Part shown: positions 62,369-64,000 of the stretch, one piece after another
How the letters are laid out: each line of letters starts with the position of its first letter
How positions within the stretch are numbered: the first letter of the stretch is position 1
Position numbers and translations under genes: made by a program
The notes under the pieces: model-generated
The model's database searches: none
Told to the model about the DNA's origin: nothing
The model's input: the letters and a program-made list of their open reading frames with translations, nothing else
IMG/VR virus record: IMGVR_UViG_2690315780_000002
Coordinates: 2,229 to 66,228 of that record
From: a virus
Taxonomy: Duplodnaviria; Caudoviricetes
Strand: one strand, 5' to 3'
DNA length: 64,000 nucleotides

Positions 62369-62666
62369 CTGCATGACATTGAAAGAGTTTGCAGGGAAGC
62401 TAAAACTCTCACCATCAACTATCTATAAAAACCCACCAAAATATTACATGTTTAAGGTGGGCGGTTCATGGCGAGCTAACAAGGAAAGCCTGAAAAAGTT
62501 TGAACAGGCGCAGTTTAATGACAATAATGTTTACCGGCTGGCTGTGGTCGGTGGCAGGAGAAATTCAAAATGCCGATCTACAAAAGAGGGAATACGTTCT
62601 GGATTGATGTCACATCTCCAAGTGGAGAAAGAATTAGGAGATCTACTGGCACCACGAACAAGGTGA
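62358..62666 (+). CDS. xis: Excisionase (HTH)
   Basis: MTLKEFAGKLKLSPSTIY..FKVGGSWR; overlaps int start as in P22. Confidence 0.75.
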   Translation: MEDDCMTLKEFAGKLKLSPSTIYKNPPKYYMFKVGGSWRANKESLKKFEQAQFNDNNVYRLAVVGGRRNSKCRSTKEGIRSGLMSHLQVEKELGDLLAPRTR

Positions 62667-63616
62667 AAGCTCAGGAGTATCACGATAAATTAAAGTACGA
62701 CCTATGGCAGATAGATAAACTAGATAAATCGCCAGAACGAACATTCGATGAGATGATGATTTTGGCGCTAAGAAACGCTGAGAGTCATCGAAGTTTTGCA
62801 AATGCACAAACTAATGCAAGGTATTTCCTAGCTATTTTCAAGGGAAGAAAACTATCCACTATTACCAGTGATGAGATCACGAACTCACTGCCTGTGTATA
62901 GCACGAAAACAAAGAGAAAACTCTCTAACGCATCCAAAAACAGGTATCGTTCATTTATTATGAGGGCATTTTCATTAGCCCACAAAAGCGGATGGATAAA
63001 AGAAAAACCGCATGTTCCATCGTTTAGAGAACCAGTTGTCAGGGTTAGATGGATCGAAAAGGAAGTAGCAATTGAGCTAATTGATAATCTAAAGCTAAAG
63101 TGGATGAAAGACTTAGTTAGCTTGGCATTATTAACTGGAGCAAGACGAGGTGAGTTACTATCCCTAACTTGGAGTAATGTTGACTTAGATAGAGGGGTTG
63201 CAATAGTAACACCTGAAAACTCAAAATCTAACCGAGGTCGCCCTCTCCCTTTAAATGAAGATGCTGTAAATATTTTACGCAATATTCCAAGAGAATTTGA
63301 ATATGTATTTACGAGAACAGGAAAAAGAAAACGATCTATCGGTCTTGAAGATTTTGAACGGGCAGTTAGATTGACTGGGTTAACAGATTTTAGATTTCAT
63401 GACCTGCGCCACACATGGGCAAGTTGGCATGTTCAGAGCGGAACACCATTAATGGTATTAAAAGAAATGGGAGGATGGGAAACATTAGAAATGGTTAAGA
63501 GGTATGCCCATTTAAGTGGTGAACATTTAACCAAATACAGTGAGCGCGTCACAATTTCGACACACTCGAAGAATGAAGCCAGCAAAAAGCCACATCTAAC
63601 TCTTTTAACTGGCTGA
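62570..63616 (+). CDS. int: P22-family tyrosine integrase, intact
   Basis: [45 protein letters not shown]. Confidence 0.95.
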   Translation: MPIYKRGNTFWIDVTSPSGERIRRSTGTTNKVKAQEYHDKLKYDLWQIDKLDKSPERTFDEMMILALRNAESHRSFANAQTNARYFLAIFKGRKLSTITSDEITNSLPVYSTKTKRKLSNASKNRYRSFIMRAFSLAHKSGWIKEKPHVPSFREPVVRVRWIEKEVAIELIDNLKLKWMKDLVSLALLTGARRGELLSLTWSNVDLDRGVAIVTPENSKSNRGRPLPLNEDAVNILRNIPREFEYVFTRTGKRKRSIGLEDFERAVRLTGLTDFRFHDLRHTWASWHVQSGTPLMVLKEMGGWETLEMVKRYAHLSGEHLTKYSERVTISTHSKNEASKKPHLTLLTG

Positions 63617-63672
63617 TTAATATAAATTAATATTGCCTATCATCTAATATAAAACGCAATCTTGAATAGATT
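63606..63672. other. Right attachment site of prophage 2: IHF site plus core
   Basis: IHF-like AATCAGCCAGTTA (reverse, 63606-63618); core AATC-TTGAATA-GATT (63658-63672) at the flagellin breakpoint. Confidence 0.7.
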
Positions 63673-64000
63673 TAATATCAGAATCTGAATTAGAACCATT
63701 TTTTGCTTGGACGGTTAATTCACGAATACGTTGTAGGTTATTATTAATCTCATTCAAGGCCCCTTCTGTGGTTTGGGCTATGGAAATACCATCATTCGCA
63801 TTACGTGCAGCTTGAGTTAAACCTTTAACATTAGCCGTAAAGCGGTTTGCAATCGCTTGACCCGCTGCGTCATCCTTGGCGCTATTAATGCGTAAGCCAG
63901 AAGATAAACGTTGAATTGCATTACCTAATGCACTTTGTGAACGATTTAAATTATTTTGAGTGACCAGTGACAGATAATTGGTATTAATGACTTGTGCCAT
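63644..64000 (-). pseudogene. fliC: Flagellin 5' portion, truncated after ...SIQD by prophage DNA
   Basis: [50 protein letters not shown]; non-flagellin CVLY* follows residue 114. Confidence 0.93.

Follow-up and report, generated by a model that had tools for sequence, protein, structure and literature searches.

Evidence that a lambdoid temperate phage family of Proteus integrates within the conserved 5' part of flagellin genes

Results

An integrase gene adjoins half of a flagellin gene

The window analyzed here is a 64,000-nucleotide stretch at the right-hand end of a provirus record of 66,228 bp. Positions refer to the window unless marked contig, in which case they count along the full record, whose 2,228 leftmost bases the window omits. 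On the left the record opens with the stop codon of a flagellin 3' part, and on the right it closes with the ATG of a flagellin 5' part; the window stops exactly at this ATG because the provirus record was trimmed at gene ends, as were most of its IMG/VR relatives. The features at the right end are as follows.

62313-62666, + strand: excisionase-like ORF directly upstream of, and overlapping, the int start (phrog_2907 'excisionase', E=8.9e-9)
62570-63616, + strand: Int, predicted tyrosine recombinase of the flagellin-targeting type I phage, 348 aa (PF00589, E=3.8e-30, residues 161-317; phrog_1 integrase)
63548-63564, + strand: candidate arm-type Int-binding site of the P arm, a 17-mer within the int 3' end, ~100 bp left of the core
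63577-63593, + strand: second block of short motifs, a 10-mer and an 8-mer, common to the P and P' arms (P' copies at contig 889-898 and 871-878)
63606-63618, - strand: IHF-like site over the int stop codon, one mismatch to WATCAANNNNTTR
63617-63662: P-arm spacer, 46 bp of phage DNA separating the int stop from the core
63663-63679: attR common core, 17 bp, encoding flagellin D108-Q113 on the - strand
63663-64000, - strand: flagellin 5' part, codons 1-113 of a split second copy ('flaB'-type; Flagellin_N, E=8e-37)

The Int translation, which ends at a stop codon at 63614-63616, displays an R...HxxR...Y pattern (ARRGE, HDLRH, KRYAHL). The excisionase-like ORF had zero Pfam matches, and its true start is probably internal to the interval given. 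At up to three mismatches, the candidate arm 17-mer has just two copies in the 66-kb contig, one at 63548-63564 and the other in the P' arm (contig 950-966), 119 bp to the right of the left-hand core and in the same orientation. These repeats are putative Int-binding sites; the 10-mer and 8-mer, being short, are weaker evidence than the 17-mer. The IHF-like site is likewise weak on its own, because matches of this quality (at most one mismatch) come once per 441 bp in this AT-rich window. Exact matches occupy the equivalent place after two other integrase genes, that of prophage 1 (15787-15799) and that of the type II relatives described below (L002 7018-7030).

Flagellin-derived DNA begins with the ATG at 64000 and gives way to phage DNA after 63663, inside codon Q113. 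The N-terminal ORF that contains it (63644-64000, - strand) is 118 aa long and matches positions 1-110 of the 139-position Flagellin_N profile. From D114 onward the frame is read from phage DNA (D114-C-V-L-Y-stop) and closes five phage-coded residues past the core. The original prediction, which had flagellin homology breaking near codon 114 just past the int stop with no 3' replacement carried by the phage, is borne out on both points for the window's phage type.

The same prediction proposed TTGAATA (63662-63668), flanked by AATC and GATT, as a 7-bp overlap between inverted core sites. These strings are present as written; the role given to TTGAATA is not established, since the stretch common to attL and attR in this record begins only after its first base. 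Across genomes, that base is outside the identity in G000, G011 and G024, whereas the string fits whole in G007, whose attR has a C there. Other placements of a 7-bp overlap within the 17-bp core are equally possible, and strand exchange, as far as the alignments tell, must fall inside 63663-63679. The reported 44-nt spacing was reproduced: the IHF-like site ends 44 nt before 63662, and its prophage 1 counterpart ends 44 nt before 15843, where a tRNA anticodon loop starts.

One short core links both junctions, the empty site and a phage form

The 17-bp core, TGAATAGATTTAATATC, is identical at the two junctions of the record, window 63663-63679 (contig 65891-65907) and contig 815-831. The window holds one exact copy and the 2,228 bases to its left hold another, where 0.06 matches at up to two mismatches would be expected by chance. 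Elsewhere inside the record, the sole other match (22086, two mismatches) lies within a tail gene. By this measure the junction is beyond chance, whereas the 4-bp inverted repeat and the IHF-like motif are not. The partner junction was expected at the apparent left end of prophage 2 (~18.4 kb) and instead sits past prophage 1, outside the window:

contig 815-831 (core) and contig 1-831 (3' part), - strand: attL core and flagellin 3' part, 1.4 kb left of the window (Flagellin_C)

Translation of the - strand yields flagellin residues 105-380 from contig 4-840 and residues 1-116 from contig 65881-66228. Pfam divides the ends in the same manner, with Flagellin_N positions 1-110 at the right end and positions 103-137 plus Flagellin_C at the left.

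An unoccupied counterpart is found in G017, whose intact second flagellin copy accommodates both halves (L188 3245-3458 and 2927-3267), with a 23-bp overlap at the core. The window's flagellin 5' part is 98% identical to this copy and 77% identical to the first copy of the same genome. The flanks of the unoccupied site in G017 correspond to the attL left flank and attR right flank of G000 and G011, and those in G025 to the flanks of G007. Across five Proteus genomes, the core is unoccupied and exact only in second flagellin copies. The P-arm spacer adjoins the core in the attR of G000, G007, G011 and G024 and is absent from the unoccupied attB.

Metagenome contig L319 presents the remaining form. 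Its int (98.6% aa identity), the spacer, the core and the P' arm are contiguous and are followed by a tail-fibre gene; L319 1-1985 aligns with contig 63932-65910, and L319 1963-2497 with contig 812-1346. The core is the same 17 bp with one A/G variant. Whether this contig derives from free phage DNA or from the joint between tandem prophage copies, it represents attP either way. Past the core, the unintegrated form thus continues into the P' arm, which is the sequence adjoining the flagellin 3' part in lysogens. Recombination of attP with attB to give attL and attR accounts for all four forms, with one short core common to all and host sequence retained without loss.

The junction recurs across Proteus genomes and viral records

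We compared the locus with 21 Proteus species representatives, a set centred on the Proteus genome reached via locus L002. A prophage occupies this flagellin codon in 7 of the 21, and the window's type, which we call type I, accounts for three (G007, G011 and G024). Int is 97-100% identical across seven IMG/VR proviruses, G007, G024 and the attP contig. As the original prediction anticipated for close Int homologs, these independent prophages break flagellin at the same core and have the 3' part at the opposite end; the outcome named as refuting it, close Int homologs located at tRNA or other sites, did not appear. Among 80 kept IMG/VR loci, seven encode Int at 99-100% identity, and both that reach far enough past int (L082 and L087) carry the flagellin 5' part. 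In G001 and G003, int and the flagellin 3' part occupy opposite ends. A 35-mer from the P' arm retrieved IMG/VR records in which the order flagellin 3' part, core, P' arm held in eight of eight. Parts of the attR stretch also occurred in at least 20 rows from 15 studies among the sequencing-run matches listed, all of them contigs.

The prophages at this site are mosaic and differ widely in gene content. By DNA, the nearest phage is Proteus phage Pm34, which carries a different integrase module. No record in the phage collection had the window's Int, the best match being 58% in a Hafnia phage. Proteus phage records contained no flagellin pieces; the 12 matches obtained were small unannotated records of other hosts.

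We conclude with high confidence that the right end of the window is the attR of a lambdoid temperate Proteus phage family, whose tyrosine integrase recombines a 17-bp attP core with flagellin codons 108-113 and probably uses the second flagellin copy as its landing site. The central claim of the original prediction, a true att site of a tyrosine integrase within the conserved N-terminal coding part of flagellin, is therefore upheld, with attR, attL, attB and attP forms all seen. Such a junction could in principle also be accidental, produced by random deletion, by illegitimate recombination or by misassembly where a prophage end meets a flagellin gene, and the record invites the suspicion: it stops exactly at the flagellin ATG, its interior is oddly composite, and repeated flagellin genes can break assemblies. 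Yet the joint is precise to the base in many records, including the single-contig genomes G007 (4.1 Mb) and G024 (3.9 Mb), and the other half of the gene lies with the same core at the opposite end. The ATG end is accounted for by trimming, and unoccupied sites and an attP form exist, so that an accidental origin would demand that every record of the quartet be an artefact. We regard its probability as negligible.

Under the site-specific model, Int and IHF, acting with arm-type repeats some 100-120 bp on either side of the core, would carry out Campbell-type integration, and the adjacent Xis-like protein would direct excision, restoring the flagellin gene exactly. The type I target would be the second copy of a tandem pair, which lacks the sigma-28 promoter of the fliD-proximal copy. 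The phage would in this way exploit a strongly conserved yet dispensable sequence as a safe landing site. Lysogeny would cut flaB to 113 plus five residues, and motility should continue.

The interior of the record is composite

The insert between the junctions is not a single phage but a 65-kb composite: prophage 1, which is defective, is followed by a tRNA-Arg fragment, a P4-type integrase and prophage 2.

1-15257: prophage 1 remnant, with tail, head-completion and capsid genes (ORFs and PHROG)
15258-15783, + strand: second tyrosine integrase, tRNA-Arg type, C-terminal part of a truncated gene (PF00589 from profile position 18, E=5.6e-43, ORF 15115-15783)
15806-15855, - strand: tRNA-Arg(TCT) 3' fragment, from the CCA end to the anticodon stem, with the anticodon loop at 15843-15849
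16016-17242, + strand: P4-type integrase, a third element (Arm-DNA-bind_3, E=7.2e-11; Phage_int_M; phrog_1)
18473-62569: prophage 2 body, lambdoid siphovirus layout (Pfam and PHROG matches)

Portal, terminase, lysis, replication and immunity genes are missing from the prophage 1 remnant, judging by its ORFs and PHROG matches. The P' arm and attL of the flagellin phage form its left end, which falls outside the window; contig 812-1346 matches the P' arm of L319. Prophage 2 encodes a tail fibre, a J-like protein, a tape measure, a capsid module, portal, terminase, replication, CI/CII-like, RecT/YqaJ and Dam proteins, and its similarity is a mosaic of Proteus phage Pm34 and proviruses G001-G003. 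ARAGORN detected no whole tRNA in the window. When contigs of sequencing runs X1, X2, X3 and X8 were compared with window 8000-24000, they covered the tRNA region only, with X1 also covering part of the capsid gene; all four diverge from the window after 15855. Because the capsid gene in X1 continues past 15257 with other sequence, this position is a deletion or recombination joint.

One explanation is that prophage 2 alone is the flagellin phage. The composite would then be real, formed by homologous recombination of a segment bearing the tRNA-Arg joint (truncated int, tRNA fragment and P4-type int) into a resident prophage; the alternative is an assembly chimera of the flagellin and tRNA-Arg loci. 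The canonical ends enclose both prophages, with the P' arm and attL to the left of prophage 1 and int and attR to the right of prophage 2, and there is no core between the two prophages. The joint of tRNA fragment and P4-type int is widespread, occurring in 10 of the 21 Proteus genomes at 93-100% identity, and window 15793-18480 is 100% identical to G012:C31, a genome that does not have the right part of prophage 2 in common with the window. Prophages 1 and 2 share just a 1.4-kb tail-fibre stretch (92%) and a further 0.6 kb (85%); nothing within this contig would by itself mislead an assembler. Size weighs on the other side: single prophages at the flagellin site span 39-56 kb, and 65 kb cannot be one packaged genome. 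We give this account an even chance. Tandem site-specific double lysogeny was also considered as the origin of the composite and was rejected, since there is no third core.

Type I lysogeny splits a second flagellin copy

In all three lysogens with visible context (G007, G024 and G011), the fliD-proximal flagellin copy is intact, with the split one located downstream. A simple motif scan placed a sigma-28 motif upstream of five of five proximal copies and zero of four second copies; the same scan returned a degenerate sigma-28-like sequence upstream of flaB. The second copy of the tandem pair we take to be flaB of P. mirabilis, described there as silent. For the source genome, we infer a flaA upstream of the split gene from its relatives and from the 98% versus 77% identity to the two G017 copies.

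The original prediction held that lysogeny knocks out the flagellin gene. The gene is indeed split. The suggested consequences fared less well: with the split copy devoid of a sigma-28 promoter and the fliD-proximal copy intact, loss of the H antigen, of TLR5 signaling or of a phage receptor is unlikely, and type I lysogeny, which splits a second, promoter-less copy, should not knock out motility.

Lysogeny could still be imagined as a functional knock-out, or as an excision-controlled switch, of an expressed flagellin, with effects on the H antigen, TLR5 recognition or the receptor of flagellotropic phages, by analogy with active lysogeny at comK. The gene is truly split and the phage carries no replacement, excision would rebuild it exactly, the second copy retains an open frame in non-lysogens, and the degenerate sigma-28-like sequence lies upstream of it. 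The sigma-28-driven proximal copy is nevertheless untouched in every lysogen whose context is visible, the type I core does not occur in the proximal copy of those three genomes at up to four mismatches, and the second copy is reported to be silent in P. mirabilis. A knock-out or switch is on this evidence very improbable, and we retain the view that type I phages land in a dispensable duplicate.

Type II relatives adjoin a complete flagellin gene

The other lysogens at this codon, G006 (P. alimentorum), G012, G013 and G020, are of a second type. The type II Int of P. alimentorum is 76% identical to that of the window. Type II prophages sit in the expressed, fliD-proximal copy. In these lysogens, a full flagellin gene of 380-386 aa adjoins int, and a displaced flagellin fragment beginning at about residue 105 adjoins the P' arm. 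In the arrangement known from elements in icd, the target ORF is kept whole: the element provides a new 3' part, and the old one is moved to the other end. This arrangement is absent from the window's type I and is present, as read from sequence, in type II.

These observations suggest how type II phages might act. Their cassette would take in the variable surface domain, running from about codon 113 through the stop codon to the terminator. Integration into the expressed, fliD-proximal gene would yield a full flagellin composed of the host's 5' part and the phage's 3' part, and the host's own 3' part would come to lie at the opposite end of the prophage. Were crossovers to fall at other points in the homology, phage and host could swap variable domains and move flagellin alleles between species. 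We lean toward this broader interpretation, with reservations: Proteus flagellin genes would be the att site of the whole phage family, and the type II branch, carrying a flagellin cassette of ~800 bp between the P arm and the core, would integrate into the expressed gene, amounting to H-antigen conversion by integration and a trade of variable domains between phage and host.

A type II attP form was not found among the records searched, where type II was represented by one of the 80 kept IMG/VR loci, a record cut within int. The P' 35-mer is compatible with type II alpha as well; it matched only type I junctions, eight viral and two metagenomic. We also considered whether the type II spacer, the first 173 bp after int, is captured host DNA, and found no support for this, as it had no match in host DNA downstream of any flagellin gene compared.

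Discussion

Phages integrate mostly at tRNA genes or in intergenic DNA, and a site in the conserved D1-coding part of flagellin, occupied in a third of Proteus representatives, is unexpected. It also appears to be undescribed: our literature search found no description of a prophage in a Proteus flagellin gene. P22-type and DLP12-type integrases cross over in tRNA genes (thrW and argU), with the phage supplying the tRNA 3' part. The window's module resembles theirs in its PF00589 domain, in an int 3' end facing attP, in the IHF-like site at the int stop and in the 44-nt spacing. Its target, however, is a flagellin ORF with no tRNA in or beside the site; the end of prophage 1 (15787-15855) is an example of the P22/DLP12 type. 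Distant Int relatives (at most 54% identity) do sit at tRNA genes, 12 of the 23 loci checked being tRNA-adjacent. None of the 10 closest non-Proteus relatives (55-64% identity) lies at a whole tRNA gene; five are at the 3' end of queA and three upstream of minC.

Integration into protein-coding genes has well-known precedents. Phage 21 and the element e14 enter icd of E. coli, and the gene remains complete because the element brings a substitute for its 3' end. Like these, the phages described here combine a tyrosine integrase, a core in a conserved protein-coding gene and an int gene beside attP. Type II relatives appear to restore the target as the icd elements do, whereas the window's phage has no substitute and splits its target, which is a flagellin paralog. 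Since the type II substitute of ~800 bp includes the antigenically variable middle of the protein, the product would change and not merely be preserved. Among gene-splitting prophages are phi13 in hlb and L54a in geh of S. aureus, and phi10403S in comK of Listeria ('active lysogeny'). Type I shares with them integration into an ORF without replacement, and precise excision would restore the gene. In contrast to those cases, the split gene here is a promoter-less duplicate whose loss is probably silent, and we saw no regulatory sign.

Two modes of use of one site constitute a natural experiment on landing inside a gene: type I splits a silent duplicate without repair, and type II targets an expressed copy and seems to bring its replacement. 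The junctions described here explain split flagellin genes that annotation pipelines would label pseudogenes, and the defined set of attP, attB and Int may be developed into genetic tools for Proteus. If the type II cassette works as read, temperate phages would directly drive flagellar antigen diversity in a bacterium of the urinary tract and gut.

Flagellin variation at this locus has another reported source. Belas and co-workers are said to have shown that flaA-flaB rearrangements in P. mirabilis give hybrid flagellins. As in our model for type II, a new flagellin arises at the same locus when a 5' part becomes fused to a different 3' part inside conserved regions; that process is reportedly homologous recombination by the host between resident copies, with no phage or att site.

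A phage that remodels flagellin has been described in Enterobacter, where FRphi carries a complete second flagellin gene (fliCP) and a TldR-gRNA repressor of the host gene (PMC13418256). Type II relatives likewise would change the flagellin of the lysogen. FRphi integrates elsewhere, whereas in Proteus integration itself would swap the 3' two-thirds of the host gene, a mechanism that, if confirmed, differs from RNA-guided remodelling in Enterobacter.

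A flagellin gene split at a shared core

Site-specific integration of prophage 2 (the right part of the window, from about 18.4 kb to int) into a flagellin gene had been proposed from motifs at the window's right end. Sequence inspection recovered these motifs and both 44-nt spacings, from the IHF-like site to TTGAATA and from the IHF match at prophage 1 (the left part, to about 15257) to an anticodon loop.

Features near the attachment sites (window coordinates unless stated otherwise; contig coordinate = window + 2228)
62570-63616, + strand: integrase gene int (348 aa; PF00589 domain)
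63548-63564: arm 17-mer, P side, inside the 3' end of int, ~100 bp from the core
63606-63618: IHF-like site, 1 mismatch
63662-63668: TTGAATA, between AATC and GATT, by sequence inspection
64000 (ATG) down to 63644, - strand, opposite int: flagellin 5' ORF (118 aa; residues 5-114 match Flagellin_N 1-110 of 139)
15787-15799: exact IHF match, 3' of prophage 1's truncated integrase
15806-15855: tRNA-Arg(TCT) 3' fragment
15843-15849: anticodon loop of this fragment
16016-17242: P4-type integrase; past it come an HTH gene and prophage 2, which looks complete
Contig 950-966: arm 17-mer, P' side, same orientation as the P-side copy, ~119 bp from the core

Within the window, one IHF-like match is found per 441 bp, and such small motifs are weak evidence taken alone. 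The final DCVLY and stop of the 118-aa ORF are encoded by non-flagellin DNA. The window corresponds to bases 2229-66228 of one contig of 66,228 bp. The record is classed as a virus and its relatives are IMG/VR proviruses, most of which end exactly at the int stop codon; this indicates that provirus records are cut at gene ends, which accounts for the window ending at the ATG of the flagellin ORF.

The full flagellin of Proteus alimentorum (locus L002) matched the contig twice, with residues 1-116 at the right end and residues 105-380 at contig 4-840, likewise on the - strand, so that the record opens with the stop codon of the 3' part. On this left piece, Pfam places Flagellin_N positions 103-137 and Flagellin_C. 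A 17-mer core, TGAATAGATTTAATATC, is found at both joints (contig 815-831 and 65891-65907, the latter window 63663-63679). Phage DNA lies to the right of the left copy, and a 46-bp spacer and int lie to the left of the right copy. A split gene with the core at both joints is, in sequence terms, the signature of Campbell integration. The partner joint is not at the apparent left end of prophage 2, however; it lies 1.4 kb left of the window, past prophage 1.

The block of identity between attL and attR spans 22 bp in G007 and 20 bp in G024, both Proteus lysogens, and 17 bp in the window's record, where the crossover must fall inside these 17 bp. The proposed 7-bp overlap, TTGAATA, lies fully inside the shared block only in G007; in the window's record, G024 and the lysogen G011 its first base falls one position outside. 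By analogy with prophage 1's tRNA site, where the spacing from IHF site to loop is equal, TTGAATA is a possible overlap. A core-like 17-mer with 2 mismatches in a J-like tail gene (window 22086-22102) was treated as a chance match.

The flanks of the core share further motifs. At ≤3 mismatches, the 66-kb contig holds just two copies of the 17-mer GTCACAAT (C or T) TCGACACA, one in the int-side P arm and one in the opposite P' arm, and a 10-mer and an 8-mer are also common to both arms. We consider these repeats candidate arm-type Int sites. An ORF upstream of int resembles an excisionase.

Unoccupied sites, a joined attP and recurrence

The attB search covered 21 Proteus species representatives, reached via the genome of L002. 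The second flagellin copy of G017 accepts both halves of the window's gene (3' half at L188 3245-3458, 92%; 5' half at L188 2927-3267, 98%), which overlap by 23 bp at the core; identity to the first G017 copy is only 77%. The 25-nt flanks of this unoccupied site equal the left flank of attL and the right flank of attR in the window's record, and an unoccupied site in G025 matches the flanks of G007 in like manner. Duplication of the core is the sole change between attB and lysogen flanks, with no other gain or loss.

Searching a metagenome collection with a 35-base stretch of the P' arm returned two contigs. One, L320, is a further attL. The other, L319, contiguously carries int (873-1916, 98.6% amino acid identity), the spacer, the core, the P' arm and then a tail-fibre gene; the alignments pair L319 1-1985 with contig 63932-65910, and L319 1963-2497 with contig 812-1346. 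Its core has one A/G variant, present also in G024 and four IMG/VR records. L319 is either an unintegrated attP or the junction between tandem copies, two forms with the same sequence. Past the core it continues into the P' arm of the other prophage end and not into unrelated DNA, the outcome that had been named as telling against an att site.

Among 80 IMG/VR loci kept for comparison, seven encode an Int 99-100% identical to the window's. Both close Int homologs whose sequence reaches ~390 bases beyond int carry the flagellin 5' part there, as the original prediction anticipated. Whole-record searches of five related proviruses placed int and the flagellin 3' part at opposite ends of G001 and G003, showed int with the flagellin 5' part in G002 and G005, and gave no match in G004. 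The order flagellin 3' part, core, P' arm holds in all eight IMG/VR records containing the P' 35-mer. Between their ends, G001, G002 and G003 match the window's record in patches only; they are different mosaic phages sharing one integration module rather than one inherited insertion. Three of the 21 species representatives (G007, G011 and G024) are lysogens of the same type, hereafter type I; Int is 97-98% identical to the window's in G007 and G024, and the G011 contig begins within the spacer. With all four att forms and many independent lysogens in hand, this is a genuine phage attachment site within a flagellin gene.

Copy number at the flagellin locus varies, with four tandem genes in one species representative (G016:C18:15696-20715). 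One IMG/VR lysogen has an extra flagellin start directly after the displaced 3' fragment (L314 2554-2820).

The target is a second flagellin copy

Upstream of the split copy, all three type I lysogens retain a complete flagellin gene adjoining fliD; the identity of FliD and of FliS was verified on L002. A sigma-28-type motif (TAAAGGTT, 11 nt, GCCGATAA) lies ~105 bp upstream of all five fliD-proximal copies examined; upstream of four second copies, two of them split, only a degenerate version was present. In five genomes (G006, G009, G012, G017 and G025), the second copy holds an exact and unoccupied type I core; no such core was found in the first copy of type I hosts at ≤4 mismatches. In P. 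mirabilis the tandem pair consists of an expressed flaA and a silent flaB, and flaA/flaB hybrids arise through recombination.

A knock-out of the split flagellin had been envisaged, with a change of H antigen or TLR5 signal as one possible role. Since the fliD-proximal copy is intact and the second copy lacks the sigma-28 motif, the phage truncates flaB, and motility, H antigen and TLR5 signaling should stay with flaA. The benefit to the phage is likely a target sequence that is kept conserved but is dispensable. Because this target is a spare flagellin copy, the biological effect of the window's phage is probably mild.

Type II relatives seem to carry a flagellin cassette

Relatives that we term type II (L002 5984-8382 and L179 1498-2360, also L214-L219) occupy the fliD-proximal copy. 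In P. alimentorum (G006), 236 bp separate the stop of a complete 380-aa flagellin gene from an int whose product shares 76% identity with the window's Int; fliD, fliS and fliT come after that flagellin gene. On a separate contig, a P' arm with homology to that of the window phage adjoins a flagellin fragment from about residue 105. The codon at this joint is the same, and a full second copy comes after the fragment. Between fragment and second copy (L179 682-1583), a HigA-like HTH gene with a small ORF upstream of it extends the intergenic region to 1.2 kb.

This layout is repeated in G013, G020 and G012 (int is frameshifted in the last), each locus having two flagellin 5' ends versus three 3' ends. 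The fragment lies 449 bp from the next copy in G020, versus 451 bp in the non-lysogen G010; as the usual spacing is kept, the fragment is the first copy's own 3' part, displaced, and the int-side 3' part is extra.

This extra part seems to travel with the phage, as evidenced by near-identity of the int-side block between G006 and G020, which are different species representatives. Their fliD sides are 63-93% identical in 100-column windows, versus 100% for int, spacer, flagellin terminator and the last ~230 bp of the gene; the prophages are 99.7% identical over 3.9 kb on the int side and, at the opposite end, 99.2% identical over 1.7 kb. A further pair of this kind is G013 with G012. Within the type II spacer, the first 173 bp are confined to these four prophages, and the remainder is ordinary flagellin terminator region.

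The int-side variable regions of G006 and G020 share 25-69% identity. From column 360 onward, every 60-column window of the displaced G006 fragment matches the full gene of G020 at 94-100%. The most economical interpretation places one phage-borne allele beside int in one host and beside the P' arm in the other, which would put the crossover near the core in one case and within the C-terminal homology in the other.

The type II core, TGGATTGATTTGATATC, is the same as the first-copy site in G010, G015 and G018, all unoccupied. Its P-side 17-mer is 1.07 kb away (L002 6962-6978), so the cassette occupies the interval from the old P arm to the core. A type I-like ancestor is suggested by this position, which also makes integration driven by homology plausible. 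Type II phages seem to carry a replacement flagellin 3' part, with a hybrid gene as the predicted product. A free type II attP was not found among the IMG/VR loci, phage records or metagenome contigs searched. These cassette-bearing phages are worth experimental follow-up.

Integrase relatives and described parallels

Neighborhoods of 23 Int-relative loci from bacterial genomes were inspected. In 12, all with ≤54% identity and including Gilliamella, Frischella and Pasteurellaceae, a tRNA gene lies on the opposite strand within ~250 bp 3' of int. No tRNA gene was found beside int in the ten closest non-Proteus relatives (55-64%): five, from Xenorhabdus, Providencia, Limnobaculum and Pantoea, sit at the 3' end of queA (L003, L004, L005, L007 and L008; 55-64%) and three lie upstream of minC (L006, L010 and L011). 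With tRNA sites in distant relatives and none in the closest ten, the earlier description of an integrase retargeted from tRNA genes is fair for the family's history. A hairpin-like string, ATCAGAAAAACAGTCTGAT or a near variant, is conserved between int and queA, ~40-110 bp past int.

In a full-text literature search, thin on subscription journals, no description of a Proteus flagellin gene occupied by a prophage turned up. Among the nearest described parallels, phage integration into icd brings a substitute 3' end, and prophages in hlb and comK split host genes. Another is a flagellin-remodeling prophage of Enterobacter (PMC13418256), which works through an RNA-guided repressor and a separate flagellin gene.

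The record has a composite interior

Read from the left, the record starts with the flagellin 3' part and the core. The P' arm, accompanied by small genes, comes next, and then tail genes, head-completion genes and a capsid gene; the last breaks off at ~15257, giving way to the C-terminal portion of another integrase on the other strand (window 15115-15287). In sequencing run X1, the capsid sequence continues beyond 15257. Prophage 1 is without portal, terminase, lysis, replication and immunity genes, and its similarity to prophage 2 is limited to stretches of 1.4 kb (92%) and 0.6 kb (85%). No flagellin core was found inside the interior.

Window 15793-18480, which also holds a 124-aa ORF without a family and the start of a tail fibre, is 100% identical to G012:C31:261939-264620. 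The joint between tRNA fragment and P4-type int recurs in 10 of 21 Proteus genomes at 93-100% identity, and in every case the 3' end of one or another integrase gene lies ahead of it (three of the ten were aligned); ARAGORN found no whole tRNA at the joint in the six genomes checked. This recurrence means that a stretch typical of a tRNA-Arg locus sits inside a flagellin-locus prophage. It may have entered by homologous recombination with incoming DNA, or it may be a product of assembly error. The composite interior leaves the att finding untouched.

Two repeats were also observed. In prophage 1, a run of GAGCCT-type hexamer repeats (window 13759-14050), with the capsid gene and the head-completion genes on either side, reads as (EP)n in ORF 13814-14050 and, in a different frame, as (SL)n in ORF 13759-13941. 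The early region of prophage 2 contains a 563-bp direct duplication with 91% identity (window 53309-53871 and 54863-55425).
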